Positions 753 through 57,049 are shown, counted from the stretch's first letter. The stretch: 64,000 bases of DNA from Candidatus Falkowbacteria bacterium GW2011_GWF2_43_32 (GCA_000999715.1 LCGL01000001.1:3139-67138), one strand, 5' to 3'. A program made the numbers and translations. The notes: generated by a model from the letters alone, not told the origin.

Positions 753-761
753 AATACTGAC

Positions 762-871: not shown

Positions 872-877
872 ACAATC

Positions 878-1353: not shown

Positions 1354-1462
1354 ATTTTCTCATAAGATTAATGAATAAGATAATCTTATTATAAAATATG
1401 CAGGATAAAGTTTAGTTAAAATTTTTCTAAAGAAAAAGTTTATTTTTAGAAGTCAGCAAAAA

Positions 1463-1828
1463 TCAATCCCCTTTTTTCTTGAATTTCGTCTTGGGCAATA
1501 AGCAAGCGCAGGGCTTTTTCTTGAGAATCACCCGTTGTTCGGCCAGGGTCTGCAAAAAGACGTCCTGACCGCCTTGACCGCGCGCCAGGCGTTTGTCCAG
1601 GGGAGTGCGGTGTTGATAGCCGCGGCGAACAAACTCCTTGACCAGGGCCTCGTGGCGCTCATAGAGAGCCTTGGTTTTCCCGACCCAGCGCAAAGTTTCC
1701 GGATGACGCGAATAACCGCCCCGACCGCCGTGCTTGGTCAGGATATTCCATAAACCATGCAGTTCACGGTGTTCGGCCAGCAGGTGCTGACGGCAAAGAT
1801 GTTGCGGATTAATGTCCCAGATACGCAT
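1463..1828 (-). CDS. Pyrimidine dimer DNA glycosylase / T4 endonuclease V family protein
   Basis: MRIWDINPQHLCRQHLLAEHRELHG resembles the T4 EndoV N-terminus (..DQHLMAEYRELP..). The ORF track starts at GTG 1846; ATG 1828 (MRIW) fits the family N-terminus better. GC-rich compared with its neighbours. Confidence 0.7.
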   Translation of the reverse strand: MRIWDINPQHLCRQHLLAEHRELHGLWNILTKHGGRGGYSRHPETLRWVGKTKALYERHEALVKEFVRRGYQHRTPLDKRLARGQGGQDVFLQTLAEQRVILKKKPCACLLPKTKFKKKGD

Positions 1829-1845
1829 AGCATTAGAAAAAAGCA

Positions 1846-3426: not shown

Positions 3427-3430
3427 GATT

Positions 3431-3778
3431 TTATAATTGATTATATTTGTAATATTTTCCCTTAGCCTTGCCGACAGGATATTTATCTGCGTTTTTTAAT
3501 ATTTTTTTCTCCAACGCATCGTAAATATCAATATCCAAATCATGAGCCATAAGTAAAACCCAACCCAAAACATCGGCTAATTCTTCCCCTATTTCGCTTC
3601 TATTATCCCTAATGTAATTTTCTAAAACAGCTCCATTTTTCCATTGGAAGTGCTCCAAAACCTCGGCCGCTTCAAGAGCTAAAGACAGGGCCATATCTTT
3701 AAGATTATGAAACTGCTCCCAATCTCTTTCATTACGGAAAGCTAACAATTTATCAGTCAAATTTTTTATTTCCGACAT
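3431..3778 (-). CDS. MazG-like nucleotide pyrophosphohydrolase (all-alpha NTP-PPase, dCTPase-like)
   Basis: LALEAAEVLEHFQW and EIGEELADVLGWVLLMAHDLDID acidic metal-binding motifs. The ORF track start at 3793 is TTG; the first ATG is at 3778. 4-nt gap to the next gene. Confidence 0.75.
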   Translation of the reverse strand: MSEIKNLTDKLLAFRNERDWEQFHNLKDMALSLALEAAEVLEHFQWKNGAVLENYIRDNRSEIGEELADVLGWVLLMAHDLDIDIYDALEKKILKNADKYPVGKAKGKYYKYNQL

Positions 3779-3871
3779 ACATTTACGAATCAAAATATTC
3801 TTAGAAACATTTTATATTTTACTTATCTTTATTTAATAATCTCATAAACTACGGCAAAAGTCAAAAATAAA

Positions 3872-3891
3872 AGCAACGGACCTCCGTTGCT
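3872..3891. terminator. Bidirectional rho-independent terminator after the adaptor gene
   Basis: AGCAACGG-ACCT-CCGTTGCT perfect 8-bp stem, with A-run on the plus side upstream and T-run downstream. Confidence 0.6.
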
Positions 3892-3925
3892 TTTTAGCTA
3901 AAATTAAATAAAAATATCTTGTCCC

Positions 3926-5821
3926 CTACTTCACAAAAGTCACCGCCAATTCTCCCGGTTGTAAGTCGCCGCTCACAATTTCCACCAAGCCTTCGTCGCC
4001 GCGCAGACCGACCGTCACCGGCACTTCCCTGACGGTCTTGCCCTCCAAGATGCGAACAAATTGTCCTTGGCCGTTCCTGTCCACAATCGCCCGTCCCGGC
4101 ACGATTAAAACATTATCGCGGCGGTCGGTGTTGATGACGATGTTGGCGGTCATCTCCGGTTTGATGAACGAAAACAAAGCGAAACTGGGATCGTCAAACG
4201 CCGGCGCACTCAAGCTCACTTTAACTTTATAATAAGGTTCCACAGAATAAACGGTACCGGTAAACTTATGGCTTTCGCCCAAGGCGTCAAAGGTAATCAC
4301 CGCTTCGTCGTTCACTTTGATTTTGGAAATGTCGGTTTCGGAAATGTCCGTCTCAATTTCAAAATTATTTTCCGTCAACAAGACAAAAACCGGTTGGGCG
4401 GCGGAAAACTGTTCGCCAACTTCATAATTCAAACCGACAATCTGACCGTCTATCGGCGCTTTCAAAATACTGTCGGCCTGCTGTTTTTTGATCAAATCCA
4501 AACTGGCCTGGGCCTGACGCACCTGCGCCTCCACCGAACTTAAATCTTCACTGCGTGCCGGCGCTTTCAGTTTCGTCAATTGCCGATCGGCCACACCCCA
4601 AGCCTCTTTGGCACTATCCATCGCCGCTTTGGCCGCGGCTATTTGCTTGTCGCCGGTCAAACGCGCCGAAGACAAAGTATTACGCGCCGTCGTCAGTCCT
4701 TCGCTGAGATTAACCTCGGCCTGCGCCAAAGCTTGCGTCAAAGAAGCGACATTGTTTCTGTAAGTCAAAAAAGCGTTATCCAAATTGTATTTGGCGGTTT
4801 GTAAAGAACTCAAACCGGTGTTGACCGCGGCAATTTGCGTATTGACGCTGGCTTTAAACGCGTCCAATTCCGTTTGCGTCATGGCCGCGGAAGAAATGGT
4901 ATATTCCAAACCGCTGTAACAACTGTTCAAAGCATTAAAAGTTTCATTAAGATAGGCGGCCACGGCGGTATTGAGAAGATTGAAATTATTTTCACTGCCC
5001 TCCAAGCGCGCCGCGCTTAAAGCGTCGTCCGCCGCGCTCTTCAAAGACTTTGCCTGATTATAATAATTTTCCGTGGCACTCTTATAGACGACATTCTTGA
5101 CGCTGAAGATGTTTTCCAAATCATCGTCTTCCAAGATGCCCCAAATTTTGTCCAAAGCGGTATTGGCGACGGAAATGTCATAACCGGCGGCGGTCAAAAA
5201 ATTGTTTTCGCCGTTATCAATGGCTTGCTGATAGCTGGTTCGGCCGTTAGCCAGATTGAGAGCGGCGATAGTCACCGCTTGTTCCAAAGCGGTCGGCGTG
5301 GCCGCGCCCGTATCTTCCAAATCGCTTAATTTCTTTTCCGCCTGACTGATCGTTTCCGCCACCGAAGCCCGAGTATTGTCATAGTCGTTGGCCGCACCTT
5401 CGTAGGCGGCCTTGGCTTGATTGGCTTGCGCCTGCAAAACCGCGATTTCCGAAGCGGTCGCTCCGCGCGTCAACTTGTCTTTATTGGCCAGCGCTAAATC
5501 AAAATTGGCTTGCGCCTCCTGTTCTTTGATCAATAATGAAGAATAGTCCAGCTCGGCCAAAATTTGATCTTTAACCACTTTATCGCCCACTCGCGCCTCT
5601 ATTTTCCCGATCTTGCCGACCTGAGGAAAATTCAATTCCAACTCCCGCAAGGGTTTCAGCGTGCCGGTTTCGGACACGGTCTGAATCAAGTCTCCTTGAA
5701 CAACGGTTGCGGTGGAATAGACCGGCTGAGGTTTTTTATTGCTCTGCCAAATAATCAAAACGACGACGACAAAAATCGCGCCGCCGATGATTAACCATCT
5801 TTTTTTATTTTTCTTGGACAT
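3926..5821 (-). CDS. HlyD/MacA-family periplasmic adaptor (membrane fusion protein) with a very long coiled-coil
   Basis: 631 aa; N-terminal TM helix, lipoyl-like GDKVVKDQILAELD, long A/Q/L-rich coiled-coil, C-terminal beta-barrel VPVTVGLRGDEGLVEIVSG. Confidence 0.8.
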   Translation of the reverse strand: MSKKNKKRWLIIGGAIFVVVVLIIWQSNKKPQPVYSTATVVQGDLIQTVSETGTLKPLRELELNFPQVGKIGKIEARVGDKVVKDQILAELDYSSLLIKEQEAQANFDLALANKDKLTRGATASEIAVLQAQANQAKAAYEGAANDYDNTRASVAETISQAEKKLSDLEDTGAATPTALEQAVTIAALNLANGRTSYQQAIDNGENNFLTAAGYDISVANTALDKIWGILEDDDLENIFSVKNVVYKSATENYYNQAKSLKSAADDALSAARLEGSENNFNLLNTAVAAYLNETFNALNSCYSGLEYTISSAAMTQTELDAFKASVNTQIAAVNTGLSSLQTAKYNLDNAFLTYRNNVASLTQALAQAEVNLSEGLTTARNTLSSARLTGDKQIAAAKAAMDSAKEAWGVADRQLTKLKAPARSEDLSSVEAQVRQAQASLDLIKKQQADSILKAPIDGQIVGLNYEVGEQFSAAQPVFVLLTENNFEIETDISETDISKIKVNDEAVITFDALGESHKFTGTVYSVEPYYKVKVSLSAPAFDDPSFALFSFIKPEMTANIVINTDRRDNVLIVPGRAIVDRNGQGQFVRILEGKTVREVPVTVGLRGDEGLVEIVSGDLQPGELAVTFVK

Positions 5822-16090: not shown

Positions 16091-16861
16091 CTAAATATAA
16101 TTCAAAAAACAATCAATGATTTTTTTAGCTTCCTTGATCAAAGCGGGATTGGCTTTGATTTTCAGCTCTTGGCTGTCTAAGAGATAACGAATTAATTTAA
16201 CACAATTATCGGAAATAATCAATAAATCGGTCGACAAAACCTCTTCTTCGGTTTTCTTTTGTTCCCGACAAGTATCGCAAACCAAACCGCCGCCCTTAAG
16301 ATCGAAAAAATTCCGACCGGCGACTATCGGCCGTCCGCAAACCAGACAAGTTCTCATCTCCGGCACATAACCCAGCTCCGCCAAGAGCTTTAAAGCGAAA
16401 AAACTATAAAATAATTCCCCGTCGCCTTGGCTCAATCCCTGGGCCGAAGACTCTTTCGTCTGAGAATGCCGTTTTTCTTGAAAATCATTCAAAACGTCCA
16501 ACCAATCGCGCAATAAAAAAAACAGACGCTCGTCCGGATGACCTTCTTTGACAAATCGGCTGAAAAGATTGAGCGCCCGACCGGCGTAATATAATTTATT
16601 CAAATCGTTTCTGATGCCCGCATAAGCAGCTCGCGTCACGACACTGCCGGCATAATCAAAAGTTTTACCCGGGATAATTAAAAAATCCGCCCAGGTCAGC
16701 GGTTCAATGTGGCCGGCTAATTTGGATTGCAATTTTTTTACGCCGCGAACCACGAGCGACAAACGCCCGTAATCGCGGGTATAAACCGTCACCAAAGCGT
16801 CATATTCGCGATATGGCTGACGATTTAAAATTATGGCCGGCGTATTTTTGGTTGCGTCCAT
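16091..16861 (-). CDS. recO: DNA repair protein RecO
   Basis: OB-fold N-terminus (AIILNRQPYREYDALVTVYT..GR) and CxxC..CxxC zinc motif (CLVCGRP..CDTC). Confidence 0.85.
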   Translation of the reverse strand: MDATKNTPAIILNRQPYREYDALVTVYTRDYGRLSLVVRGVKKLQSKLAGHIEPLTWADFLIIPGKTFDYAGSVVTRAAYAGIRNDLNKLYYAGRALNLFSRFVKEGHPDERLFFLLRDWLDVLNDFQEKRHSQTKESSAQGLSQGDGELFYSFFALKLLAELGYVPEMRTCLVCGRPIVAGRNFFDLKGGGLVCDTCREQKKTEEEVLSTDLLIISDNCVKLIRYLLDSQELKIKANPALIKEAKKIIDCFLNYI

Positions 16862-16869
16862 AGATTAAA

Positions 16870-16996
16870 CTTTCAGATAATGCTTTCGAGGAGCGAATAT
16901 TTTTTCGTAAAGAAAAATTTAGCTAGCCGCCGGCAGGCGGATGGATAAATTTTTCCACAGAAAAAATCCTGAGCGGAGGAAAGCATTATCCGGAAG
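16870..16996 (+). ncRNA. Long-hairpin intergenic element, copy A (strand assignment tentative)
   Basis: 18-bp outer stem (16 WC, 1 U.G, 1 A.C); conserved loop GAGGAGCGAAU / ..UGAGCGGAG; 8-bp A/U stem; loop GUAAA/CACA; apical stem with CCGCC-GGCA-GGCGG. Fills the ruvX-recO spacer. Confidence 0.5.
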
Positions 16997-17034
16997 CTTA
17001 AAACTTTTCTTTTAATTTCGAATTATAAAACAAA

Positions 17035-17418
17035 TCAATTTCTGTCCAAATAATCCTGCAAAATAAGCGTGGCGGCGATTTCATCGCGCTCCGCTTTTTC
17101 CGTTCCCTGCCCGTCCAAAGAATCGGCCGCCAAACTGCTCAAGCGTTCGTCAACCAACTCCACCAATCGACCGCTCCGCTCTTTCAATTGCTCCAAGAAA
17201 CTGAGCCAAAGCGGATTGTCGGCCGCCTCGCCGCTCATTTTAGTCGGAGCGCCCAAAACCACGATATCGGTTTTTTCTTCTTTCATTACTTTTAAAACAT
17301 CCGCCAAAGTTTCCACCGTCTCCAAAGGCAAAGCCAAATTGGTTTCGCCGTCAGCGGTCGCCAAACCGATTCTTTTTTCCCCCCAATCGATACCCAAGTA
17401 TTTTTTAGTATTTTCCAT
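17035..17418 (-). CDS. ruvX: Holliday junction resolvase-like protein RuvX/YqgF
   Basis: YLGIDWGEKRIGLA N-terminus and GEAADNP motif typical of YqgF. Confidence 0.85.
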   Translation of the reverse strand: MENTKKYLGIDWGEKRIGLATADGETNLALPLETVETLADVLKVMKEEKTDIVVLGAPTKMSGEAADNPLWLSFLEQLKERSGRLVELVDERLSSLAADSLDGQGTEKAERDEIAATLILQDYLDRN

Positions 17419-17439
17419 ATAAATTATAATCCATTCTAG

Positions 17440-17569
17440 ATTTGCAAATCAAAATTATGTTTTAAGGAGCGATTGTTCTTTTCGTAGAGCAACCTTTATT
17501 CACCAACCGGCGAATAAAGTTTGCCACAGAAAAGAACTAGCGGGAAAAACATGATTTTGATTTGCAAAT
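17440..17569 (+). ncRNA. Long-hairpin intergenic element, copy B (strand assignment tentative)
   Basis: 24-bp outer stem (one U.G); loops AAGGAGCGAUU / UAGCGGGA; stem GUUCUUUUC/GAAAAGAAC; loop GUAGA/CACA; variable apical stem. Fills the map-ruvX spacer. Confidence 0.55.
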
Positions 17570-17586
17570 TTATTAACTTGATTAGA

Positions 17587-18417
17587 TTATTCAGTCAAAA
17601 TTTCGACTCCCTTGTCCGTCACCGCCACAGTATGTTCAAAATGCGCGCTTAAAGAGCCGTCGGCGGTCAAAATCGTATAACCGTTATCGGCCGTGACGAC
17701 GCGCCAATCGCCGATATTGATCATCGGTTCAATGGCGATAACCATACCCGATTTCAAAACAATGTTCTCCGGCGCTTTGTCGTTAATAGCGAAATTAAAG
17801 ACGTCCGGCGCTTCATGGGCAAAATAGCCGACGCCGTGTCCGACCAAGTCGCGCACCACGCCATAGCCATGCTTTTCGGCCTGTTGTTGGACGGTGCGGC
17901 CGATATCGTTAAGCCGCGCGCCCGGCCGAACGGCTTTAATCGCCAAGGCCAAACACTCGCGGGAAACGCTCAACAATTTTTTGGCTTCGACGCTGATTTT
18001 TCCCGCCGGGACGGTCACGCAAGTGTCGGTAAAAAAGCCGCCGAATTTAGAATGCGGATTAACGGGCGCCTGATATTCGGCTCTCAGCTCCGCGGTTATC
18101 GGCCACTCCATGCCGATATCCAAGTCAACAATATCGCCGGACTGAATCACGCGATTCGGCCAGGCCGCCCCGTGCACGACCTCGTTATTGATGGACACGC
18201 ATAAAGTGGACGGAAAAAACAAACCGCCCCCCAAAGGATAGTTTTTAAACGCCGAATGACCGCCGGTTTCCGTAATTAATTTATTGGCCAAGTCTTCCAA
18301 ATAAGCGGTTTCCACTCCGGGCCGCACTTCCGCGGCCAAACGCGCTAAAATGGCGGCCAAACGCCGGCCGCCCTCTTTGATAATCTTGATTTCCGCCGCT
18401 GTTTTAAGATAAATCAT
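17587..18417 (-). CDS. map: Type I methionyl aminopeptidase
   Basis: Metal ligands in VVHG, DIVDLDIG, GHGVG, IEPM, FEHTV. Confidence 0.95.
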   Translation of the reverse strand: MIYLKTAAEIKIIKEGGRRLAAILARLAAEVRPGVETAYLEDLANKLITETGGHSAFKNYPLGGGLFFPSTLCVSINNEVVHGAAWPNRVIQSGDIVDLDIGMEWPITAELRAEYQAPVNPHSKFGGFFTDTCVTVPAGKISVEAKKLLSVSRECLALAIKAVRPGARLNDIGRTVQQQAEKHGYGVVRDLVGHGVGYFAHEAPDVFNFAINDKAPENIVLKSGMVIAIEPMINIGDWRVVTADNGYTILTADGSLSAHFEHTVAVTDKGVEILTE

Positions 18418-18781: not shown

Positions 18782-19081
18782 TTATTTGGTTTTAAAACTT
18801 TCTAACAAATCCCTGATCTGCTCCAAATCTTGATAAGTCAATTTTAATTTCAAGCGATTTTGGTACAAACGATACATGTCTTCTCTGACGGTAAATCGTG
18901 ACGGCGTAATTCCGTCGCGCAATTTTTCCTGATATTTTTTAAGCAAATCCAAAATCAAACCGCGATTGGCCTCGTCCAGGTTTTTATAACGCGGATTAGT
19001 CCGCAACATTTTTTGGAATCGCTGTTCCAAACGATAAATGGTTTGATCGGCCAATCCCTTGGCCACGCCGGTTAAATCCAT
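18782..19081 (-). CDS. Hypothetical helical protein
   Basis: 99-aa ORF, first gene after the secY terminator; occupies the slot where adk normally sits. Confidence 0.4.
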   Translation of the reverse strand: MDLTGVAKGLADQTIYRLEQRFQKMLRTNPRYKNLDEANRGLILDLLKKYQEKLRDGITPSRFTVREDMYRLYQNRLKLKLTYQDLEQIRDLLESFKTK

Positions 19082-19132
19082 AGTAATCTCGATTAATAAA
19101 TTTCAAAAGATATATTTATTATATCATAAAAA

Positions 19133-19154
19133 ATAACGGCCAACCAGCCGCTAT
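19133..19154 (-). terminator. Rho-independent terminator after secY
   Basis: On the minus strand, AUAGCGGC-UGGUUG-GCCGUUAU (one G.U) followed by a U6 run. Confidence 0.55.
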
Positions 19155-19187
19155 TTTTTATTTTATATTAAACAAAATATATCAAAA

Positions 19188-20459
19188 TTAGAGTCCGTCA
19201 TACTCCCGCATGGTCAATTGGGATTCAATCTGCTTGACGGTTTCAATCACTACTGAAACGACAATCAACAAGCTCGTGCCGCCGATGGACAAAGCCTGAA
19301 TGCCGGTAAAATAACGCATCACCAGCGGTAAAACGGCAATCAAGCCCAAAAATAAAGCGCCGACCAAAATGATTTTATGAGTAGTCCCGGACAAATATTC
19401 TTCGGTATTCTTGCCCGGTCGGATACCGGGAATAAACCCACCTTGCTTCTGTAAATTCTCGGCGATTTGTTTGGGATGAAAAACGACTTCGGTATAAAAA
19501 TAAGTGAAAGCGAACACCATCAAAAAGTAAATGATGCCGTAAAATAATTGATTGTTGAATAACTCTATCGTTCCGGCCGCAGCCCGGGCAATCCAGGCTG
19601 TCTTCGCGTGAATGAAAAACTGCGCAATCATGGACGGAAACAACACCACGGAAATGGCGAAGATAATCGGAATAACGCCGGCCATATTGACGCGCAAAGG
19701 CAAATGCGAACTGGTGCCGCCATAAGCGCGGTTACCGCGAATCTGCCGCGCGTATTGCACCGGCACGTTACGTTGACCTTCATTAATAATAACGACGCCG
19801 ACTACCGTAATAATGGCGATAACGACGAAACCGATCAAAGTGAACAGTTGCGCCTGATCAAAAGTGATAATCAATTGTCGGAGAATCTGCGGCAAGCTGG
19901 CGACGATACCGGCGAAGATGAGCAAAGAAATACCGTTACCGATTTTCTTTTCGGAAATCAATTCTCCGATCCACATCAAGAAAATCGAACCGGCGGTAAT
20001 GGTCATGATCATAATGCCGAAATCCAACGGCGTAATCGTGCCCAAAATGGCGGCCGAACTGCGACGCAACAAGGTAATCATGCCGTAAGCCTGCAAAGCG
20101 CCCAACGGTACGGTCAACCAACGCGTCCACATATTGATTTTCTGTTGTCCGGCCTCCTCTTTCTGCATCTCTTCAACGGACGGAACAATCATGCCTAACA
20201 ATTGAAAAATAATGGATGAAGTGATATAAGGAGCGACGCCCATCATCACGATGGAAAAATTCTCCATGCCGCCGCCGGAAAACAAATTCATCAAACCTAA
20301 AATCTGATTGGAGGCGAACAAATTTTTTAAGGCCACATAGTTTACGCCGGGAATCGGAATATGAGCCGCCAAACGAAAAATAACCAGCATCGTCAAAACG
20401 AACAGAATGCTGTTCCGCAGATCCTTAGCCTTCCAGATTTGCGTTAGTTTATCAAACAT
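19188..20459 (-). CDS. secY: Preprotein translocase subunit SecY
   Basis: 423 aa, 10-TM pattern with typical SecY motifs; spc-operon position. Confidence 0.95.
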   Translation of the reverse strand: MFDKLTQIWKAKDLRNSILFVLTMLVIFRLAAHIPIPGVNYVALKNLFASNQILGLMNLFSGGGMENFSIVMMGVAPYITSSIIFQLLGMIVPSVEEMQKEEAGQQKINMWTRWLTVPLGALQAYGMITLLRRSSAAILGTITPLDFGIMIMTITAGSIFLMWIGELISEKKIGNGISLLIFAGIVASLPQILRQLIITFDQAQLFTLIGFVVIAIITVVGVVIINEGQRNVPVQYARQIRGNRAYGGTSSHLPLRVNMAGVIPIIFAISVVLFPSMIAQFFIHAKTAWIARAAAGTIELFNNQLFYGIIYFLMVFAFTYFYTEVVFHPKQIAENLQKQGGFIPGIRPGKNTEEYLSGTTHKIILVGALFLGLIAVLPLVMRYFTGIQALSIGGTSLLIVVSVVIETVKQIESQLTMREYDGL

Positions 20460-29086: not shown

Positions 29087-29980
29087 TTATTTAGTTTGAT
29101 CCTTGTCTTTTTTTTCGTCTGACACGGCTTCGCTGGCTTCCGATTTGACTTCTTCCGTCTTGGCTTCTGCCGGTTTATTTTCTTGAACCGGCGCCTCCAC
29201 CTTGACTTCTTCCGTCCTGGCTTCTTCCATCTGGGTTTCTTCTTGTTTGTTTTCCGTCACCGGCGCCTCAGTCTTCGCTTCTTCCGGTTTGCCTTCTTCA
29301 ACCGCAGACGTTTCCTTGATTTCTTCTTTAACCGTTTGAGCGGCTGTTTTTAAATTAACCTGCAAATCGCCTTTGCTCCGAATCATCACTAGACTGTGCA
29401 AAGCGCCCGGAACCGCTCCGGCCACAAATAAAATATTATTTTCGGCGTCAATCGCCGCTATTTTTAAATTGGTGGTAGTTACTCTGTCGCCGCCCATTCT
29501 TCCGGCCATCCGCGTGCCTTTGAAAACGTGCGCCGGACCTTTGGCGCCGATGGATCCCGGCATTCTTTCCTGATCTTTGTTACCGTGCGTTTTGCGGAAA
29601 CCGTGAAAATGATGACGTTTCACTACGCCCTGAAAACCGCGACCCTTGGAAACGCCGCTAACATCAATGATATCGCCGACCGCAAAAGTCTCCACGCTGA
29701 CAACATCGCCTTCTTTGAAGGAGGGTGCTTCATCAACACGAAATTCCCGAACATGTTTCGGTTTAAGGCCGGTTTTTTTAAAATGCCCGCGCTGAGGTTT
29801 GTTGATATTCTTTTCTTTGCGTTCGCCAAAACCCATCTGCAAGGCGTTATAGCCGTCGGAAGTTTTATTTTTAACTTGCGTAATCACGCAAGGACCGGCC
29901 GATACCGGCGTTACCGCCACGACTTCGTCGCCGGACCAAATTTGCGTCATCATCGCTTTTTCTCCTAGAATAAATTTCAT
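29087..29980 (-). CDS. rplC: 50S ribosomal protein L3 with a repetitive E/K/T-rich C-terminal tail of about 85 aa
   Basis: GVSKGRGFQGVVKRHHF core; synteny. Confidence 0.9.
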   Translation of the reverse strand: MKFILGEKAMMTQIWSGDEVVAVTPVSAGPCVITQVKNKTSDGYNALQMGFGERKEKNINKPQRGHFKKTGLKPKHVREFRVDEAPSFKEGDVVSVETFAVGDIIDVSGVSKGRGFQGVVKRHHFHGFRKTHGNKDQERMPGSIGAKGPAHVFKGTRMAGRMGGDRVTTTNLKIAAIDAENNILFVAGAVPGALHSLVMIRSKGDLQVNLKTAAQTVKEEIKETSAVEEGKPEEAKTEAPVTENKQEETQMEEARTEEVKVEAPVQENKPAEAKTEEVKSEASEAVSDEKKDKDQTK

Positions 29981-30012
29981 AAACTATTTTTACAGACTGA
30001 ATTTAAAATAAA

Positions 30013-30032
30013 AACTGGTCGGAAAACCAGTT
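30013..30032 (-). terminator. Terminator-like hairpin inside the rpsJ-rplC spacer
   Basis: On the minus strand, AACUGGU-UUUCCG-ACCAGUU followed by UUUUAUUUUAAAU. Confidence 0.45.
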
Positions 30033-30193
30033 GAAAACAACAACAAAAAATAAATTAAAACTTTTATTTTTTACTTGTTCTTTTGACTGACTGATTTACC
30101 TCCTAATTTTGGCTAATTTTCACTTAAACACTTTCTAAAATGTTAGAGTTATTTAAACGAGTATAGGCCAAATAATATTACTTTTTTATACTA

Positions 30194-30535
30194 CTACATT
30201 TTTATTTCCACGTCAACCCCGGCCGGTAAGCTCAAATTCGTCAAATCATCGATGGTTTTGGAGCTGGGATTAATGATATCAATCATACGCTTGTGAATCC
30301 GCATTTCATATTGATCGCGCGCGTCTTTATGAACGAAAGTGGAACGATTAACGGTATATTTCCGTTTTTCCGTCGGTAACGGAATCGGTCCAAAAAACTG
30401 CGCGTCGGATCGGCCGACGGTTTCAATAATGGTTTTGGTGGATTGATCGATGATTTTATGATCAAAAGCTTTAATCTTGATTCTGATTCGCTGTTTAAAA
30501 TCTTTATCTTTCTCGTCTTTTTTGTTTTCGGACAT
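30194..30535 (-). CDS. rpsJ: 30S ribosomal protein S10
   Basis: [24 protein letters not shown]; synteny. Confidence 0.95.
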
Positions 30536-30606: not shown

Positions 30607-31794
30607 TTATTTCAAAATTTTAGTGACCACGCCCGCGCCGACGGTCCGTCCGCCTTCACGAATGGTAAACTTCTGCTTGTCTTCCAAGGCAATCGGTGAA
30701 ATCAACTTGACGTTTAAGTTGGTGGTATCGCCCGGCATAACCATTTCCGTTCCGGTCGGCAAAGTAATGTCGCCGGTAACATCGGTGGTTTTGAAATAAA
30801 ATTGCGGTTTATAGCCGTTGAAAAACGGTTTATGGCGACCACCTTCTTCTTTGGACAAGACATAAACTTCCGCCGTAAATTCGGTGTGCGGCGTGATTGA
30901 ACCCGGTTTGCATAAAACCTGACCGCGTTCCACTTCGTCTTTCTTGGTGCCGCGCAACAGAATGCCGGCGTTATCTCCCGCCTGTCCTTGATCCAAAGAC
31001 TTGTTGAACATTTCAATGCCGGTAACGGTGGTCTTTTTGGTATCCATCAAACCGACGATTTCCACTTCATCGCCAACCTTGATGATACCTCTTTCAATAC
31101 GACCGGTAACTACGGTGCCGCGTCCTTCAATGGAGAAAATATCTTCAATCGGCATTAAATACGGATGATCGATATCGCGAGTCGGCTCCGGAATATAAGT
31201 ATCCAAAGCTTCCATCAATTTCATAATCGGTTCCGCATCCGCGCCGGTCGAATTTTCCAAAGCCTTCAAGGCGCTACCGCGAATAATCGGGGTAGTGTCG
31301 CCCGGGAATTCGTATTTTTTCAATAAATCGCGAATTTCTTCTTCCACCAAATCAATCAATTCTTTATCTTCAACCATGTCGCATTTGTTCAAAAAAACGA
31401 TGATATAAGGCACGCCAACCTGTCTGGCCAACAAAATATGTTCTCTGGTTTGAGGCATCGCGCCATCGGTCGCGGCCACCACTAAAATCGCTCCGTCCAT
31501 TTGAGCGGCGCCGGTAATCATGTTCTTCACATAATCGGCGTGACCCGGACAATCGACGTGCGCGTAGTGTCTCTTTTCCGACTCATATTCCACGTGAGCG
31601 GTGGCGATAGTAATACCGCGAGCCTTTTCTTCCGGAGCGGCATCGATTTCATTGACGCCTTTTTTGGAAGCTTTCATGCCCTTGGCATTGAAAACGGACA
31701 ACATCGCGGCGGTCAGCGTGGTTTTCCCATGGTCAACGTGGCCAATAGTACCGACGTTAACATGGGGCTTAGTGCGTTCAAATTTGTCTGCCAT
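30607..31794 (-). CDS. tuf: Elongation factor Tu
   Basis: [22 protein letters not shown]; 395 aa. Confidence 0.97.
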
Positions 31795-31898: not shown

Positions 31899-32258
31899 TT
31901 ATTCTTGAATTTCTCGCGCCTTGTCTTTCACTTGCGGCGGAATTTGCCAAGCCTGTTTAGGCTTGTTTTCCTCGGTCGCGGAAGACAAATCATCCCGATT
32001 TTTCCACATCGAGATTTCGCGATTAATTTTATCAGTTAAATCTTCTTCTGTCAAATTTTCCGTCTGATCGGATTTTACCTCGGATTTGGCGGAAACTGGG
32101 GAAAAATTACCTGAATTTCCTGTTGCCGCCAGTTCGCTATAATTGTCAAAATTCATGATAACATAAGAATCGTCGGGGGCATTGCCGTCAAACACGATTA
32201 CCCGATCGCCGGTTTTTTTCACTAAATTTAAAATTTTTTTTAACTGCTCTGGGAACAT
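31899..32258 (-). CDS. Hypothetical protein inserted between fusA and tuf (N-terminus loosely Phd/YefM-like)
   Basis: 119-aa ORF. DRVIVFDGNAPDDSYVIMNFDNYSEL resembles the YefM ..[23 protein letters not shown] pattern; acidic, disordered C-terminus. Confidence 0.45.
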   Translation of the reverse strand: MFPEQLKKILNLVKKTGDRVIVFDGNAPDDSYVIMNFDNYSELAATGNSGNFSPVSAKSEVKSDQTENLTEEDLTDKINREISMWKNRDDLSSATEENKPKQAWQIPPQVKDKAREIQE

Positions 32259-32267
32259 ATAGTAAAT

Positions 32268-32385
32268 GTAAAATTAGAAATTGTGTTTTAAGGAGCGATT
32301 GTTCTTTTCGTCCAGCAAAATTTAGCGATAGCTAAATTTTGCCACAGAAAAGAACTAGCGGGAAAAACATAATTTCTGATTTTAC
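32268..32385 (+). ncRNA. Long-hairpin intergenic element, copy C (strand assignment tentative)
   Basis: 22-bp outer stem with a different sequence from copy B but still fully paired (two G.U on the plus strand). Loops and inner 9-bp stem identical to copy B; a different, still perfectly paired 12-bp apical stem. The right arm overlaps the fusA stop. Confidence 0.55.
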
Positions 32386-34460
32386 TTCCCTTTCTTTTCC
32401 TTAATCGCTTCTAAAATATTTCTTGGCACTTCGGCGTAATGAGAAAATTCCATGACATAACTGGCGCGCCCTTGACTCATGGAACGCAAAGACGTGGCGT
32501 AACCGAACATTTCCGCCAAAGGTACTTTCGCCTTAACCACTTTCACGTTGGCACGATCGGTCATTTCTTCAATCTGGCCGCGCTTGCTGTTCAAATCGCC
32601 GATAATATTGCCCATATAATCCTCCGGAGTAACCACTTCCACTTTCATAATCGGTTCCAACAAAACGGCCCCGGCTTTCTGACAAGCGTCTCGGAAAGCA
32701 AAAATAGCCGCCATTTTAAAAGCAATTTCCGAAGAATCAACTTCATGATAAGAACCGTAGAATACGGCCGCTTTAATATCCACCATCGGATAACCGGCCA
32801 CACCGCCGGACAGCAACGCTTCCTTGACGCCCTTTTCAATCGCCGGAATATATTCGCGCGGAATAACGCCGCCTTTCACTTCGTCCGCAAATTCAAAACC
32901 CGAACCGGCGGGCAAAGGCTCAATCCGTAAAGAGCAATGACCGTACTGACCGCGTCCGCCCGATTGCTTAACGTATTTATTCTCCGCTTCCGCTGTTTTG
33001 GTAATGGTTTCCCGATAAGAAACTTGGGGGTTGCCGACATTGGCTTCCACGCCGAATTCCCTTTTCATGCGATCAACAATAATTTCCAAATGTAATTCTC
33101 CCATGCCGGAAATCAACACCTGATTGGTTTCTTCATCGCTCTCCACGCGGAAAGTCGGATCTTCTTCGGCCAAGCGCTGTAAAGCGACGCCCATTTTTTC
33201 TTGATCGGCTTTAGTCTTCGGTTCCACGGCAATCTTAATGACCGGCTCCGGAAAAGTGATGGATTCCAATAGCAAAGGCACGGCTTCATCGCACAGCGTA
33301 TTGCCGGTTGTCGTATTCTTCAAACCGATAACCGCGGCAATGTCGCCGGCATATATTTCTTTGATTTCTTCGCGATGGTTGGCGTGCATGCGCACCAGAC
33401 GACCGATTCTCTCTTTAGTTCCTTTGGAAGAATTGGTGATATAAGATCCGGCCGATAAAACGCCCTGATAAACTCGCACAAAACACAATTTACCGACAAA
33501 AGGATCGGTGGCGATTTTAAACGCCAAGCCGATAAACGGTTTATCGTCGTCGGCTCTGATCGGGACTTTCTTTTCCGGATCGCGCACATCGCTGGCTTCG
33601 ACTTCCGGTACGTCCAACGGAGACGGCAAATACTCGGTCACGGCATCCAAAACCAATTGCACGCCGATATTTTGCAAAGCCGTTCCGCACAAAACCGGAT
33701 AAATAATATTGGCAATAACGCCTTTTCTGATAGCCGCTTTCAGCTCATCCAAAGATATTTCCTGACCGGCTAAATATTTTTCCATGGTCGCTTCATCGCA
33801 TTCCACGGCTTTTTCCACCAATTCATTGTAATATTGATCCACTTTTTCCTTCATGTCTTCCGGCACGGGAATTTCTTCAACATTGACGCCGTTCACGCCG
33901 GAAAATTTATAAGCCTTTTTGGTCAACAAATCAATGATGCCGCTGAGATTGTTTTCCGCACCGATAGGCAATTGTACGGCCACGGCTTTTTGATTCAAGC
34001 GCGTCCGAATTGACTGTAAACTCATATAAAAATCCGCGCCCATTTTATCCATTTTATTAATGAAACAAAGACGCGGAACCTGATATTTATCCGCTTGCCG
34101 CCAAACCGTTTCCGATTGCGGCTCCACCCCGGCCTGACCGTCAAAAACCGCCACCGCGCCGTCTAAAACGCGTAAGGAACGTTCCACTTCCACCGTAAAA
34201 TCCACGTGTCCGGGAGTGTCGATAATATTAATTTTCTTATTTTTCCAAAAACAAGTTGTGGCCGCCGAGGTAATCGTGATGCCTCTTTCTTTCTCCTGCT
34301 CCATCCAGTCCATTTCCGCCGCGCCCTCGTGCACTTCGCCGATCTTGTGTTTTTTACCGGTATAAAAAAGAACGCGCTCGGTAAAAGTCGTTTTGCCGGC
34401 GTCGATGTGGGCCATAATGCCGATGTTTCTAATGTTTTCTAAAGCGTAGTCTCGGGCCAT
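32382..34460 (-). CDS. fusA: Elongation factor G
   Basis: [21 protein letters not shown]; 692 aa. Confidence 0.97.
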
Positions 34461-43629: not shown

Positions 43630-43680
43630 ATTCTTTATAAAGTTATTTAAGTTTATTTTTATAATAATCTTAATAAAATT

Positions 43681-43709
43681 ATTATAGAGATAAGATTAGG
43701 AATTGTCAA
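43681..43709 (-). promoter_or_regulatory. Perfect consensus promoter TTGACA-N17-TATAAT upstream of infA
   Basis: On the minus strand, TTGACA at 43709..43704, 17-nt spacer, TATAAT at 43686..43681. Confidence 0.55.
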
Positions 43710-52329: not shown

Positions 52330-53379
52330 TTAAAACTTTTTATCCAATAAAAATACCATCAAACCGACGGCGGCACCGATAGCCGCAATTACCCAAAACC
52401 GCATCACCACTTTGGCCTCCGGCCAACCGATGGCCTGAAAATGATGATGGATGGGCGACGATAAAAATACTTTCTTGCCGCGAAATTTTTTGGACAGAAC
52501 CTGAATGATGACCGATTTTGACTCCAAAAGAAAAATCAAACCGATAAAAATCAACAATAAAGAATTATTGGTCAACATGGCGATAATGCCCAAAGTCACC
52601 CCCAAACTCATTGCCCCGGTGTCTCCCATGTAAAAACGGGCGGGCGGAATATTAAACCACAAGAAAGCCAACAGCGCACCGATAATCACACCGCAAAAAG
52701 TGGCCAATTCATAGCGTCCCAAAGCGAAGGCGATGACGCCGTAAGCGGTAAAAGCGATCAACAAGGTGCCACCCGCCAAACCGTCCAAACCGTCGGTTTC
52801 GTTGACGGAAAAGGAGGTGGCCACGATGATAAAAATAAAAATCGGAATATACCAGGCGCCAATTTCAAAATTGCCGAAAAAAGGCACATGAAATACCGTC
52901 CAATCCAGTTTAAAATAAAACCACAACGCGCCGACAATGGCAATCAGAGTATAAATAAATAAGCGATGACGCAATTTCAAACCGCCGCCGCCCAAAACTC
53001 CTCGGCCGCGAACGTCCAGCCAATCGTCAAACAAACCGATTAAAGCCGAAATAACCAAGGCTCCCAACGGCAATAAAGTTTCCGCCCGCGACAGAAAATT
53101 CAAATAAGAAAAAATGTCGGCGACAAACAATCTGTCCAATAAGGCAAACAATAAAATAAAAATCAACACCGTTCCCCAAATCAACACCCCGCCCATCGTC
53201 GGCGTCCCTTCTTTGTGAGCGTGCAAACCGGTAAAAATCGGCGTCTCGCCGTTCGCCCGCACTTTTTTGCCCAGTTTGTATTTGTATAAATAGCGCGTCA
53301 AAAGAGGTGTGACTAACATGGCAAAAATAAAAGCCAGCGTGGAAAAAAACAAAATTTTAATGACATAAGCTTCCAGCAT
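52330..53379 (-). CDS. mraY: Phospho-N-acetylmuramoyl-pentapeptide transferase
   Basis: KEGTPTMGG, NETDGLDGLA, MGDTGAMSLG motifs. Confidence 0.95.
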   Translation of the reverse strand: MLEAYVIKILFFSTLAFIFAMLVTPLLTRYLYKYKLGKKVRANGETPIFTGLHAHKEGTPTMGGVLIWGTVLIFILLFALLDRLFVADIFSYLNFLSRAETLLPLGALVISALIGLFDDWLDVRGRGVLGGGGLKLRHRLFIYTLIAIVGALWFYFKLDWTVFHVPFFGNFEIGAWYIPIFIFIIVATSFSVNETDGLDGLAGGTLLIAFTAYGVIAFALGRYELATFCGVIIGALLAFLWFNIPPARFYMGDTGAMSLGVTLGIIAMLTNNSLLLIFIGLIFLLESKSVIIQVLSKKFRGKKVFLSSPIHHHFQAIGWPEAKVVMRFWVIAAIGAAVGLMVFLLDKKF

Positions 53380-53385
53380 AAATTC

Positions 53386-53799
53386 TTAACGAAAATTAAC
53401 TAAATAAATAAACATCATCGCCAAACCGAGAAACACCGCAAAAACCGTGGCGGCCACCGACAAAAGATGAGTAAAGGTGAAAAAATTTTTATGACGACTC
53501 AAGCCGGCGGCCACGCTTAAATTTAATATCAAAATCGCCAGTCCGAAAAGCGGATAATAAAAAATGTGCGACGGATCTCCGGCCAAATCGATTCCGTAAT
53601 CCACATTATAATGCTGAACCAACAACTTGCCGGTCAGGTGGCGATATATATAAACGGCCGCCCACCAAGCGCCCAACTGCAATAAACCGTTAATTATCAG
53701 ATAGACACGGCTGGGACGAAAACGCCAAACGGCCAGCAAGGCCGTGCCGACTCGCCGTCGCCAGTCATGAAAACGGGCATAAAAATCGGAATAAACCAT
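53386..53799 (-). CDS. Small membrane protein, unknown function
   Basis: Start set at ATG 53799 (MVYSDFY); four TM segments. The longer ORF would overlap the divergent promoter region. Confidence 0.4.
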   Translation of the reverse strand: MVYSDFYARFHDWRRRVGTALLAVWRFRPSRVYLIINGLLQLGAWWAAVYIYRHLTGKLLVQHYNVDYGIDLAGDPSHIFYYPLFGLAILILNLSVAAGLSRHKNFFTFTHLLSVAATVFAVFLGLAMMFIYLVNFR

Positions 53800-53868
53800 A
53801 AAATAAGAAAAATAATCAAATAATTGACCTGATTTAAGTTTATCACATTTTAAAATAATACAAAACCG

Positions 53869-53877
53869 TGTTATAAT
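53869..53877 (+). promoter_or_regulatory. Extended -10 element TGtTATAAT 9 nt upstream of the GspE-like ATG
   Basis: tgttataat at 53869-53877; no SD before ATG 53887. Confidence 0.4.
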
Positions 53878-53886
53878 AAAGCCATT

Positions 53887-54894
53887 ATGAGCAAAAAAAT
53901 CATTACCAATCTTCTCCGCTACGCCACCCGGGAAGGGGCGCATAATTTGACGATTACCAGCCGGCCGCACCAGATCTCTTTTGATTATCTGCCGGCGGAC
54001 GGTGTCCGACGAGAGTTTAGTTTACCGAAAAAATTGGAACAAAACTTCATCGGCAATCTGCGACAAATTCTGGCTGTCGCGCCGCAGGAATTAATTGTCA
54101 AAAAATATTGCCGACTAAACGACCAGCAGGGTCGCCTGGCTTTTTATCTGACCATTCTGCCGGACGGACAAGGAGAAAAAATCATCATCAATATCAACAA
54201 TCGGGAAAACGACATTTGGCGGCTCAATCAGTTGGGACTGCAAACGTCGGACAGGCACGCCCTGCAAAAAGCTATCCACGGCCGTTCCGGCCTGATTATC
54301 ATCAGTTCTCCGCCGGACGGCGGCAAAAGCACCACTCTCCGTGCCCTGCTGACGGAACTGAACGATCCGCGACTGAATATTTATTTCCTGTCGGAAAATC
54401 TGCCGATTGAATTGCCCGGCATCAACCTATTGGCCAACCGACCGGCGAACTGGGACAAAATAATCCGCCATGACTGCGAAATAATCGCCGTTGACGATTT
54501 GGATGAAGCCGGAAGCTTGGAAAAAGCTCTCCGGGCGGCCGCCTCCGGACGTTTAGTTCTAGGCACCATGACCGGTGACGATTCCTTTGAAATCTTGAAT
54601 AAATTGCTGGCAGTCAACCTGCCCTTGAAATTAAAACTGGACGGACTTAAAATGATTGTCAGCCAACGTTTAGCCGATTTGAAGCGAAGCGGAACGAAAA
54701 AAAATCAACGGCAAAAAATCGCTTTGTTTGAAATTCTTTCCCTGAATGCGGACCTAAAAAAATTCCTGTCGGAAACAAATTCGGATGAAACCCGCGAGTT
54801 TGCCGCCGCATTGGAAAAAATAGCGCTGACCAGCGGTTTTCGCCCCTGGACAACGGACCGGCGACAAAAAATCAAAGACGGCTTGCTTGTTTAA
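53887..54894 (+). CDS. GspE/PilB-family secretion-ATPase-like protein with degenerate catalytic motifs
   Basis: Walker A-like SSPPDGGKSTT. The Walker B/Glu region reads EIIAVDDLDE and the His-box region reads SGRLVLGTMTGD (no His). The N-terminal domain resembles the GspE N2 domain. Confidence 0.65.
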   Translation: MSKKIITNLLRYATREGAHNLTITSRPHQISFDYLPADGVRREFSLPKKLEQNFIGNLRQILAVAPQELIVKKYCRLNDQQGRLAFYLTILPDGQGEKIIININNRENDIWRLNQLGLQTSDRHALQKAIHGRSGLIIISSPPDGGKSTTLRALLTELNDPRLNIYFLSENLPIELPGINLLANRPANWDKIIRHDCEIIAVDDLDEAGSLEKALRAAASGRLVLGTMTGDDSFEILNKLLAVNLPLKLKLDGLKMIVSQRLADLKRSGTKKNQRQKIALFEILSLNADLKKFLSETNSDETREFAAALEKIALTSGFRPWTTDRRQKIKDGLLV

Positions 54895-55576: not shown

Positions 55577-55903
55577 ATGTTCCAGCAAATTATCGCTCTG
55601 GCCATCATCTTTTTTTTCGTTCTGCGTTTATTGAGCCAGAAGAAAAAAAACCAGCTTAGCACCAACGAATTCGCTTTATGGCTGACTTTCTGGTTGCTCG
55701 CGGCGACGGCAATAATTTTTATCAGACAAATCGACCGCTTGGTGGCCTGGCTCGGTTTTTCCGGCACCGGCATCAATTTCCTGATTTATCTGGCTGTCTT
55801 GGTTTTGTTCTATTTGGTTTTCCGCTTACGTTTGACTTTCGCCAAAATGGATCGTCATTTGACGGACATCGCCCGCCAAATCACTTTAAACGACAAAAAA
55901 TAA
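55577..55903 (+). CDS. DUF2304-like small membrane protein
   Basis: 108 aa, three TM helices, directly after a GT2 gene as is typical for this family. Confidence 0.6.
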   Translation: MFQQIIALAIIFFFVLRLLSQKKKNQLSTNEFALWLTFWLLAATAIIFIRQIDRLVAWLGFSGTGINFLIYLAVLVLFYLVFRLRLTFAKMDRHLTDIARQITLNDKK

Positions 55904-55906
55904 CTT

Positions 55907-57049
55907 ATGAAAATCGCCCAAGTCGTCTGCGCCTTTCCGCCTTATGCCGGCGGCATCGGTAACAGCGCTTTTGAAATCGGCAAAATTTTGGCGACGCGGC
56001 ATCAGGTCGTTAATTTCACGCCGCACAATCTCAAACCGTGGTTCAAATATGGCCACGGCGCTTTTTTACCGCAATTACTCGGCAAATTGCGAAACTTCGA
56101 TTACATTTATTTGCATTATCCTTTTTTCGGTACGGCGGAAATCGTCTGGCTCTTAAAATTATTCTGCCGTCGGCCCAAGCTGATCATTCATTATCATATG
56201 GATGTCAAAAATTCCGATTGGTTGGCCAAACTTTTAAGTCTGCCCGATTGGTTCATCCGCCGTTCCCTGTTTCGCCAGGCGGACGCGATTGTCGGCGCCA
56301 GCCTGGACTACATCGCTCAAAGCAAAATAAAAAAATACTATCGTCGCCATCCGGAAAAATTCCGTGAAATTCCTTTCGGCGTTGATTTGAAAAAATTTCG
56401 GCCTAAACTGATCAACCGTCCGACCGACGGCTCCATTGTCGCTCGCGCTCAAGAAATCGTCCATTACATCAACGATAAGTTCATCAAAAAAGATCGCCTG
56501 GATTTGTTGTTCGTCGGCGGTTTGGACGCGGCCCACTATTTTAAAGGCTTGGACATTTTATTGAAAGCGTTGGCGGAGATGACGACCCGCCCCTGGCGAC
56601 TGACAGTCATCGGCAGTGGCGACCGGCAAAAAAATTACGAATCTTTGGCCCGCCGCTTGAATCTGAATAAACGCATAGATTTTCGCGGCAAACTGGCAGA
56701 GACCGATTTGATTCGCGCCTATCAAAACGCCGATTTGCTGATTTTACCGTCAATCAACAGCAACGAGGCTTTCGGTTTGGTATTGATTGAAGCCCTGGCC
56801 TGCGGCGTGCCGGTGATCGCTTCCGATTTGCCGGGCGTGCGGCGCGTTTTTGACAGTCATAAACAAGGGCTGTTGATCGCACCGGGAAACGCGGCGGATT
56901 TAAAAAAGAAATTGGAATTCATTTTTAACAATGAAGAAATGCGTCGCGTCATGTCGTTGGCGGCGCGTCGACTGGCGGAAGAAAAATATGATTTGAAAAT
57001 GATGGAAGAAAAATTAATGGCCTTATATGAAAATCGGTCTCATACATAA
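55907..57049 (+). CDS. Family 4 (GT-B) glycosyltransferase
   Basis: C-terminal EAFGLVLIEALACGVPVIASD motif. Confidence 0.85.
   Translation: MKIAQVVCAFPPYAGGIGNSAFEIGKILATRHQVVNFTPHNLKPWFKYGHGAFLPQLLGKLRNFDYIYLHYPFFGTAEIVWLLKLFCRRPKLIIHYHMDVKNSDWLAKLLSLPDWFIRRSLFRQADAIVGASLDYIAQSKIKKYYRRHPEKFREIPFGVDLKKFRPKLINRPTDGSIVARAQEIVHYINDKFIKKDRLDLLFVGGLDAAHYFKGLDILLKALAEMTTRPWRLTVIGSGDRQKNYESLARRLNLNKRIDFRGKLAETDLIRAYQNADLLILPSINSNEAFGLVLIEALACGVPVIASDLPGVRRVFDSHKQGLLIAPGNAADLKKKLEFIFNNEEMRRVMSLAARRLAEEKYDLKMMEEKLMALYENRSHT

Follow-up and report, generated by a model that had tools for sequence, protein, structure and literature searches.

A family of palindromic hairpin elements between housekeeping genes of Falkowbacteria-like Patescibacteria, possibly mobile as folded single strands

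Introduction

What is a hairpin of 118 bases doing at one of the most conserved operon junctions? In Candidatus Falkowbacteria bacterium GW2011_GWF2_43_32, such a hairpin separates fusA from a gene of 119 codons (ORF119) that is followed by tuf. We analyzed the 64,000-nucleotide stretch of DNA that contains it (GCA_000999715.1, LCGL01000001.1:3139-67138; hereafter the window). An initial annotation of the window, made from the sequence alone, had described the hairpin as copy C of a family with two further copies, A and B, and implied a functional RNA that was tied to the fusA–tuf junction and had arrived together with the neighboring ORF. Patescibacteria (CPR) have very small, dense genomes, and few mobile or regulatory non-coding elements have been described in them. 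A literature search returned nothing relevant on the hairpin family, which appears to be previously undescribed.

Results

Copy C folds into a three-stem hairpin

All elements are described here in the element frame, whose plus strand reads AAGGAGCGA... In this frame, copy C consists of an outer stem, an internal loop, a short stem (P2), a second internal loop and an apical stem-loop (Table 1), with the stem lengths, the GATA loop and the CACA strand that the initial annotation had given. The plus strand folds as RNA at -52.9 kcal/mol (z = -9.7), and none of 200 shuffled sequences is as stable, while the minus strand folds at -45.2 kcal/mol (z = -7.2). Folding with DNA parameters ranks the two strands as for RNA (-33.6 kcal/mol for plus versus -29.6 kcal/mol for minus). 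The sole non-Watson-Crick pairs in the stems are one U.G and one G.U on the plus strand, as had been noted. The right arm indeed covers the end of fusA, and the left arm indeed lies 9 nt from the start codon of ORF119 (32256-32258). The order on the minus strand is fusA, hairpin, ORF119 and tuf (30607-31794).

Table 1. Coordinates of the copy C modules, of copies A and B and of neighboring features (window positions unless another locus is named)
Feature	Position	Strand	Remarks
Copy C, whole hairpin, 118 bases	32268-32385	+	covariance model R1, 128.4 bits, E = 5e-29
Copy C, outer stem 5' arm, 22 bp	32268-32289	+	pairs with 32364-32385
Copy C, internal loop 1, 5' side, AAGGAGCGATT	32290-32300	+	opposite TAGCGGGA; GGAGCGA in every copy (part of the search pattern)
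Copy C, P2 5' strand, GTTCTTTTC, 9 bp	32301-32309	+	pairs with 32347-32355
Copy C, internal loop 2, 5' side, GTCCA	32310-32314	+	consensus GUNNA, then a conserved closing G at 32315
Copy C, apical stem-loop, 12 bp, GCAAAATTTAGC-GATA-GCTAAATTTTGC	32315-32342	+	from sequence and fold
Copy C, internal loop 2, 3' side, CACA	32343-32346	+	part of the conserved CCACAGAAAA
Copy C, P2 3' strand, GAAAAGAAC	32347-32355	+	
Copy C, internal loop 1, 3' side, TAGCGGGA	32356-32363	+	AGCG kept in all copies
Copy C, outer stem 3' arm	32364-32385	+	overlaps the fusA stop codon, 32382-32384
Copy B	17437-17572	+	R1, 115.6 bits; between map (17587-18417, minus) and ruvX (17035-17418, minus)
Copy A (subtype 1)	16865-17001	+	R1, 85.9 bits; between ruvX and recO (16091-16861, minus)
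fusA (EF-G), upstream neighbor of copy C	32382-34460	-	Pfam GTP_EFTU, EFG_III, EFG_IV, EFG_C
ORF119, conserved hypothetical, downstream neighbor of copy C, outside the element	31899-32258	-	
rpsJ–rplC spacer	29980-30194		
rpsJ–rplC spacer, L028	12071-12381		
rpsJ–rplC spacer, L029	12076-12283		
rpsJ–rplC spacer, L034	12129-12476		

Copies A, B and C belong to a family with compensatory changes

Two conserved blocks of 20 nt and 17 nt occur exactly twice each in the window, in copies B and C, against 0.03 and 0.17 occurrences expected; the shared loops and 9-bp stem that had been reported for these two copies are thereby borne out. Pattern scans of public collections yielded 11 further members in other Patescibacteria: one in a complete Falkowbacteria chromosome (L009), one in a metagenome-assembled Patescibacteria genome (L010) and nine in metagenome contigs (L019-L027). 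In the scan of genome collections, 13 of the 15 matches were chance matches in unrelated phyla, and the viral contigs and the phage and plasmid collections held no copies. So far as sampled, the family is confined to Falkowbacteria-like Patescibacteria.

A covariance model (R1) built from 13 copies (~10 genomes) assigns 86-128 bits (E ≤ 1e-18) to A, B and C. The alternative of independent, unrelated palindromes, which had been raised from the start, does not hold. Run over the whole window with filters off, R1 found no copy beyond A, B and C. Across the 13 copies, 96.3% of the stem cells are paired and 25 of the 36 pairs have changed on both sides; none of 500 shuffles reaches the observed values, and shifted partner columns pair at 44-60%. 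Within P2, the covarying combinations TTC/GAA, TCA/TGA, TCC/GGA and TCG/TGA are found among the copies. These results uphold the compensatory evidence first claimed for copy C and support A, B and C as a true family, with its fold conserved and its base changes compensatory. Covariation in palindromic DNA, however, does not alone prove that RNA is the functional form.

The elements are 105-140 bp long, with a GC content of 32-42% versus ~46% for the genome. Two subtypes can be distinguished by their loops. Subtype 2 (B, C, L010, L019-L022, L024 and L026) carries AAGGAGCGAUUG ... CUAGCGGRA and a 9-bp P2, and subtype 1 (A, L009, L025 and L027, with L023 as an intermediate) carries GGAGCGAAUR ... 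YCCUGAGCGGAG and a 7-8-bp P2. A tandem G.A arrangement can be read from the alignment in the subtype 1 loops, and a GNNA tetraloop stands at the apex of 7 of the 13 copies. GGAGCGA, TTTTCG and CCACAGAAA were part of the search pattern, so that their invariance outside the window is partly by construction. Conservation also extends to bases outside the genome-collection pattern: AGCG in the 3' loop, the AG that precedes the apical stem, and the U that follows UUUUCG. The stricter metagenome pattern did demand that U (as T), plus one more A.

Rfam 15 gave no match in the whole window at the gathering threshold. At E ≤ 10, the region 32200-32450 matched only generic plant and animal miRNA-precursor hairpins, at no more than 35 bits versus thresholds of 74-117. 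No tRNA or tmRNA was found in the window.

The modules of the element are mosaic

The internal loops and the 9-bp P2 are shared, identical, by copies B and C. Measured by region, identity between the two copies is 96% for the loops plus P2, 68% for the outer stem and 50% for the apical region. The stems of B and C had been called entirely different and yet perfectly paired; the pairing stands, but the stems are diverged homologues. The inner ~16-18 nt of the copy C 5' arm (TTAGAAATTGTGTTTT) have homologues in the arms of B, L010, L021, L022, L023 and L026. More generally, the inner 13-18 bp of the outer stem are common within subfamilies (e.g. TYAGAAATTATGTTTT), the outermost 4-12 bp vary between copies, and the arms differ strongly between subfamilies.

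Different modules of one copy resemble different relatives. The outer stem of copy C is closest to that of L022 (90%), while its apical hairpin is closest to that of L021 (86%). Although C and L022 occupy the same junction, their apical hairpins are only 59% identical, and that of L022 matches L010 (93%). L024 combines subtype 2 loops with the apical hairpin of the subtype 1 copies L025, L027 and L009 (93-96%). The apical hairpin is the most variable module, and the four differences between copy B of the window and that of strain L035 all fall in it. As judged from these identities, the outer stem, the loops with P2 and the apical hairpin have discordant, mosaic relationships among the copies. 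A role of the arms as guides that pair with other loci was rejected, as only chance 12-mers matched.

The hairpin is the variable part of the fusA–tuf junction

ORF119 had been taken for an inserted ORF. Its protein family has at least 294 members in Patescibacteria, and homologues of ORF119 lie between fusA and tuf in six other lineages without the hairpin. Since ORF119 homologues follow fusA without the hairpin elsewhere, the hairpin, and not the ORF, is the variable part of the junction and its insertion. An element occupies the fusA|ORF119 spacer in L022 and in the window species (L001-L003); the spacer is empty, with a gap of 6-21 nt, in L028, L029, L030, L031/L032 and L033. In L034, fusA and the ORF119 homologue are separated by an extra gene of 240 aa without Pfam match (L034 9268-9990), and no element was detected there. 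The hairpin is thus present at the fusA–tuf junction in 2 of 8 lineages, in opposite orientations. It is not absent from all relatives, and it does not travel together with the ORF.

In the ORF119 family, a low-complexity, variable linker connects a conserved N-terminal domain of ~45 aa to the C-terminal motif NLTEEDLTDKINREISMWKN...W.IP, which hardly varies among 30 aligned homologues. ORF119 has no Pfam match and no PDB relative; among its homologues (P0001-P0120), two source records carry the putative labels L30e-like or YefM-like. The family is specific to Patescibacteria and fixed between fusA and tuf, and ORF119 is an old resident of the junction. A link of the element to ORF119 or to another gene family was rejected, because ORF119 is present without the hairpin and other copies adjoin unrelated genes.

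Two other features were observed at the relatives' loci. L034 670-5106, just upstream of the str operon, holds a radical-SAM/SPASM cluster with three tiny ORFs (35-75 aa), RiPP-like by look. In L033, an rve-family (IS3/IS481-like) transposase at 3789-4733 lies between comEC and rpmB; it has no similarity to the hairpin element, and its insertion in this relative indicates that classical IS are active in this clade.

Elements are gained, lost and inverted at stop–start junctions

Besides fusA|ORF119, three orthologous junctions could be compared. The map|ruvX spacer is filled in the window and L035, and empty in L027, L036, L037 and L038-42. The ruvX|recO spacer is filled in the window species and in the distant L027, and empty in the nearer relatives L036 and L037 and also in L038-42. 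The spacer between DUF2304 and a glycosyltransferase gene (GT1) is filled in L020 and empty in the window (55903-55907). All four junctions vary, showing that elements are gained or lost in tiny stop–start spacers between housekeeping genes. The neighbors of the other copies are unrelated genes, namely iscS, khpA/trmD, pgk, a U32 peptidase gene, rnhB, recR and an acetyl-CoA synthetase-like gene. Two of the nine metagenome copies lie at junctions that are also occupied in the window, and this shared occupancy suggests a site preference. Against targeting, old orthology with repeated loss could be the source of filled junctions shared by distant lineages.

Orientation to the host genes is not fixed: nine copies are in sense, five in antisense, and one sits between genes that converge. 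Two junctions are occupied in two lineages each, and in both cases the paired copies are oppositely oriented. A direct case of inversion is provided by copy A, which is antisense to ruvX and recO in the window, L043 and L044, and sense in strain L035. The RuvX proteins of L035 and the window are 98% identical and the flanking DNA is a few percent diverged. In the element frame, only 3 substitutions separate the two copy A cores, and copy B has the same orientation in both strains. The segment between the long inverted arms can thus invert in place. The arms of copy A in the window contain two A.C mismatches and one U.G; with the core flipped back, these become two G.U and one C.A, which suggests that the window state may be the derived one. 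With copies at unrelated housekeeping genes in both orientations and a copy A that flips, the implied tie of the family to fusA–tuf is not supported, nor is the picture of a functional RNA that came with the ORF: the ORF is ancestral and the hairpin sporadic.

Two independent assemblies (L044 1-106 and a second Logan contig, SRR29904083) break exactly at the arm-core boundary of copy B. The breaks could reflect orientation heterogeneity or an assembly-graph tangle induced by the palindrome.

The arms abut or overlap stop codons, and the next ATG is 3-21 nt away in most copies (~33 nt in L010). With the arms crowding stop and start codons, most copies lack the space for a promoter or terminator of their own. 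At copy B, a promoter-like site was observed on the minus strand (17423-17452), with a -35 hexamer TTGATT inside the arm, 18 nt, and TATAAT before the ruvX ATG. In relatives without copy B, ruvX abuts or overlaps map directly, and the insertion of copy B may have created a new ruvX promoter.

The folding strand is fixed in the element frame

In the stems, G.U pairs outnumber A.C mismatches by 18:4 in the element frame, in line with the plus-strand preference proposed initially. The excess is found both in antisense copies (8:2) and in sense copies (10:2), and RNA folding favors the plus strand of the element in 11 of 12 copies. Since the G.U excess and the fold bias hold in either orientation, the preserved fold belongs to the element strand and not to the host transcript. 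The strand reading GGAGCGA...CCACAGAAAA...AGCG is the one with preserved folding, regardless of the direction of the host gene.

Search for mobility hallmarks and known functional classes

No transposase, HUH protein or recombinase was found among the ~40 window ORFs that were scanned and the Pfam-annotated ones (~10 ORFs, mostly near the 3' end, fell outside the scan), no integrase was found in the window, and no transposase, HUH protein or recombinase was seen near any other copy. No direct repeat was present as a target-site duplication at 13 boundaries or in the comparisons of filled with empty sites. Copy B, with its 27-bp outer stem, is flanked on both sides by ATTTGCAAAT, which is itself palindromic and hence ambiguous as a target duplication. 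No conserved terminal nucleotides were definable at the boundaries, and blastn of the element against all fetched loci gave no match at IS ends. Copy number is low: the 64 kb of the window contain three, and ~200 kb of related genomes contain none.

Several functional classes were rejected. A cis-regulatory leader or riboswitch is excluded by the mixed orientation (9/5/1) and the unrelated neighbors. An intrinsic terminator was rejected since the scanner found none around A, B or C on either strand and the AT-rich stems of 20-27 bp have no U tract; the classical terminator of L010 is separate and lies just upstream of its element. A Shine-Dalgarno or anti-Shine-Dalgarno role of AAGGAG/CUCCUU was rejected because the genome makes almost no use of such motifs (5/70) and the motif lies ~100 nt from the next ATG. 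The plus strand offers only an 8-codon frame, too little for a small ORF. A sigma-70 promoter of its own upstream of each copy is unsupported, as -10-like hexamers are no commoner than expected in AT-rich DNA. A retron msr/msd, a group II intron domain V, a hairpin-ribozyme architecture and a K-turn are all improbable from the sequence, with no reverse transcriptase, no Rfam match and misfitting registers. Resemblances to parS, a DnaA box and dif (XerD arm ATTATGTT) are partial, limited to one subfamily and subject to multiple testing, and were set aside. Insertion into pre-existing long palindromes, considered for the variable distal stems, is in general unsupported: the empty sites show a GTAA/TTAC palindrome of at most 4 bp (L028).

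Other features of the window

Almost all genes in the first 53 kb of the window are on the minus strand. The 507-nt gap at 53379-53887, between divergent operons (mraY side and T2SSE-ATPase side), is the sole strand switch in the window; GC skew is negative across the window, so that the gap is no obvious replication origin. A Shine-Dalgarno-like motif was seen at just 5 of the 70 window genes, and at many genes TATAAT precedes the ATG by 5-12 nt (gene starts checked include 752, 3426, 17418, 34460 and 53887). This pattern suggests that leaderless or very short-leader mRNAs may be widespread in this genome. Between rpsJ (S10) and rplC (L3), a long spacer (200-350 nt; Table 1) recurs consistently in operons that are otherwise very compact; it could have room for a leader or another structured element, and has no Rfam match in the window.

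Other AT-rich intergenic inverted repeats, at 19097-19190, 1345-1406 and 43648-43698, are unrelated in sequence to A, B and C. One such repeat, after the gene at 18782-19081, has 44-nt arms with 73% complementarity. A defence/toxin-like cluster at 937-3793 encodes a MazF/PemK-like toxin, a pyrimidine-dimer glycosylase, a Schlafen-group-3-like helicase and a MazG-like protein. GC content across positions 1-4000 is 39%, below the surroundings.

Discussion

Together, our results point to a non-coding mobile palindromic element that is recognized as a folded single strand of fixed polarity. Mobile palindromic DNA fits best because it accounts for gain and loss, the reuse of junctions, low GC content, modular mosaicism and the fixed folding strand. 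No partner enzyme, conserved ends or target duplication were found and the copy number is low, which counts against this reading, and we give it a probability of only about 0.45.

In the model that we favor, the element would be active as a single strand, folded and always of the same polarity, most likely as single-stranded DNA from replication or uptake. The asymmetric purine-rich internal loops and the short P2 would be read by a trans-acting enzyme. Analogous systems (IS200/IS605 ends, REPINs, integron attC sites and CTX attP(+)) make an HUH/Y1-type nuclease or a tyrosine recombinase the candidates. Of the long AT-rich stems, pairing alone would be needed. Quasipalindrome template switching and recombination between arms yield near-perfect, fast-changing stems and flips without selection on RNA. 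Such palindrome dynamics (template switching or arm conversion) may be what keeps the stems near-perfect, and may also be the source of the flips. The unpaired asymmetric loops persist against this homogenizing tendency, which argues that they are under selection. The hairpin in host mRNA would probably be a passenger, which may incidentally change the expression of the downstream gene.

A structured non-coding RNA is the main rival, a reading that we regard as rather unlikely. The plus strand would be transcribed from nearby AT-rich promoters or by read-through, the resulting RNA rod would bind a protein or another RNA through its two purine-rich internal loops, and copies would have spread by duplication or recombination. 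The strong covariation and the G.U excess on one strand are consistent with such an RNA. The GNNA tetraloops, the tandem G.A of the subtype 1 loops and the purine-rich loops are typical of RNA and count against the mobile reading. So does the identity of loops and P2 in B and C beside stems that are 30-50% diverged, which also fits purifying selection on each copy, as in a host-useful RNA. L009 and L010 moreover lie in sense 20-25 nt downstream of good promoter-like sequences (TTGAAA-17-TATAAT and TGATATAAT, respectively). Promoters and terminators are not a consistent feature of the family, however: scans of the window gave none on the element strand, and the flanks of 13 copies show only non-significant -10-like hexamers and no consistent T-run. 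At 5 of 15 placements it is the complementary strand that lies in the host transcript, the element is sporadic among close relatives, and Rfam offers no matching family even at E ≤ 10. The findings also fit poorly with an independent small-RNA gene: in most copies only 3-21 nt separate the element from a start codon, some copies lie over a stop codon, expression signals are not consistent, and copy A flipped recently between near-identical strains and yet persists.

Two further readings both seem improbable. One is an orientation-independent mRNA hairpin kept by the host, in which a 20-27-bp duplex directly upstream of the start codon serves as an RNase III site, mRNA stabilizer or operon insulator. 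The stem does form on either strand, also on the minus strand of copy C, and the short distance to the next ATG would suit a genome with few Shine-Dalgarno-like motifs and with TATAAT directly before many ATGs. It leaves the conserved, asymmetric, strand-specific loops unexplained, the wobble pairs track the element frame and not the transcribed strand, and the nearest relatives lack the element at the same junctions. Slightly more doubtful still is an inverton, or a binding or recombination site in double-stranded DNA, where a recombinase acting on the inverted arms of 20-27 bp would flip the core and alter the expression of the adjacent gene. Such a switch would account for the inverted copy A of L035, for the hybrid promoter-like site that reads into ruvX and for the two Logan contigs that end at the arm-core boundary of copy B. 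On the other hand, copy C has the same orientation in the window and L001-L003, and copy A in L043 and L044, although some of these may be the window's own source contig. The arm sequences differ between copies, so that there is no common recombinase site, the window contains no invertase gene that we could find, and the resemblance to the XerD arm of dif is limited to one subfamily. A 75-bp invertible segment is also very short for recombinase synapsis.

It is tempting to speculate further, though the odds are clearly against it, that the hairpin is a genetic unit specified by structure: either a cargo-less hairpin that, like attC or CTX attP, is recognized as a folded single strand and moved or inverted in this form, or a new RNA class. 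The cargo-less unit would use a host recombinase or a novel nuclease, and its targets would be the stop–start junctions of streamlined CPR genomes; in the RNA class, a biochemical activity would reside in the two conserved purine-rich loops. Both versions would account for the conserved loops, free-running stems, fixed folding strand, mosaic modules and repeated junction use. Were the loops the site of a nuclease or recombinase, or the seat of an RNA activity, a new mobilization system or a new RNA class would be indicated.

Even junctions as conserved as fusA–tuf and map–ruvX–recO accept structured insertions of 120 bp that flip. In this family, nature offers a clean case in which selection on a folded single strand can be told from the self-correction of DNA palindromes. 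In practical terms, these elements can cause breaks in metagenome-assembled CPR genomes and lead the annotation of genes and operons astray.

Returning to the mobile palindromic element that we prefer, how does it compare with known systems? REPIN/REP sequences, which depend on the IS200-like Y1 HUH protein RAYT, are likewise non-coding intergenic hairpin repeats of ~100 nt without target-site duplications, and they lack hallmark terminal inverted repeats as well. Their movement is believed to involve single-stranded DNA hairpins; paired changes maintain the stems, and both orientations occur. Unlike the present element, they have a conserved GTAG-type 5' tetranucleotide and stem sequence, tens to hundreds of copies per genome and a RAYT gene; here the conserved bases are in the internal loops, the termini are variable, the copy number is low and no RAYT was seen. 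In attC and CTX attP(+), as proposed for our element, structure and not stem sequence is recognized, asymmetric unpaired bases or loops confer strand selectivity, the size is 57-150 nt and the terminal hairpin is variable. In contrast to attC, the hairpin element has no R''/R' boxes (RYYYAAC/GTTRRRY) at the stem base, no cassette array, no intI and no cargo gene, and its neighbors are core housekeeping genes; compared with CTX attP(+) and attC, its similarity to the XerD arm of dif is weak and confined to one subfamily.

The palindromic MITE-like or stem-loop families (Correia/NEMIS, ERIC, YPAL and RUP/BOX) are similar in size (100-170 bp), in their long hairpin and in their placement next to stop codons and inside operons in either orientation, with possible side effects on promoters or mRNA processing. 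They have conserved terminal inverted repeats, where the hairpin element shares the inner part of its arms only within subfamilies, and they also differ in their defined target duplications (e.g. TA) and high copy number, neither of which is seen in the hairpin element. Small hairpin inversions in chloroplasts and bacterial quasipalindrome template switching share the recurrent flips among close relatives and arms perfected without RNA selection, but these are generic mutations at arbitrary hairpins, whereas the present element is a dispersed family with conserved asymmetric loops. Conserved termini or GTAG, target duplication and R boxes, which define one or other of these classes, are absent here, no partner gene was seen, and the copy number is low. 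The hairpin element belongs with the dispersed palindromic intergenic elements, for which a selfish repeat is an ordinary explanation: by analogy, it would work most like REPINs or attC-type substrates, while it looks like the palindromic stem-loop repeats.
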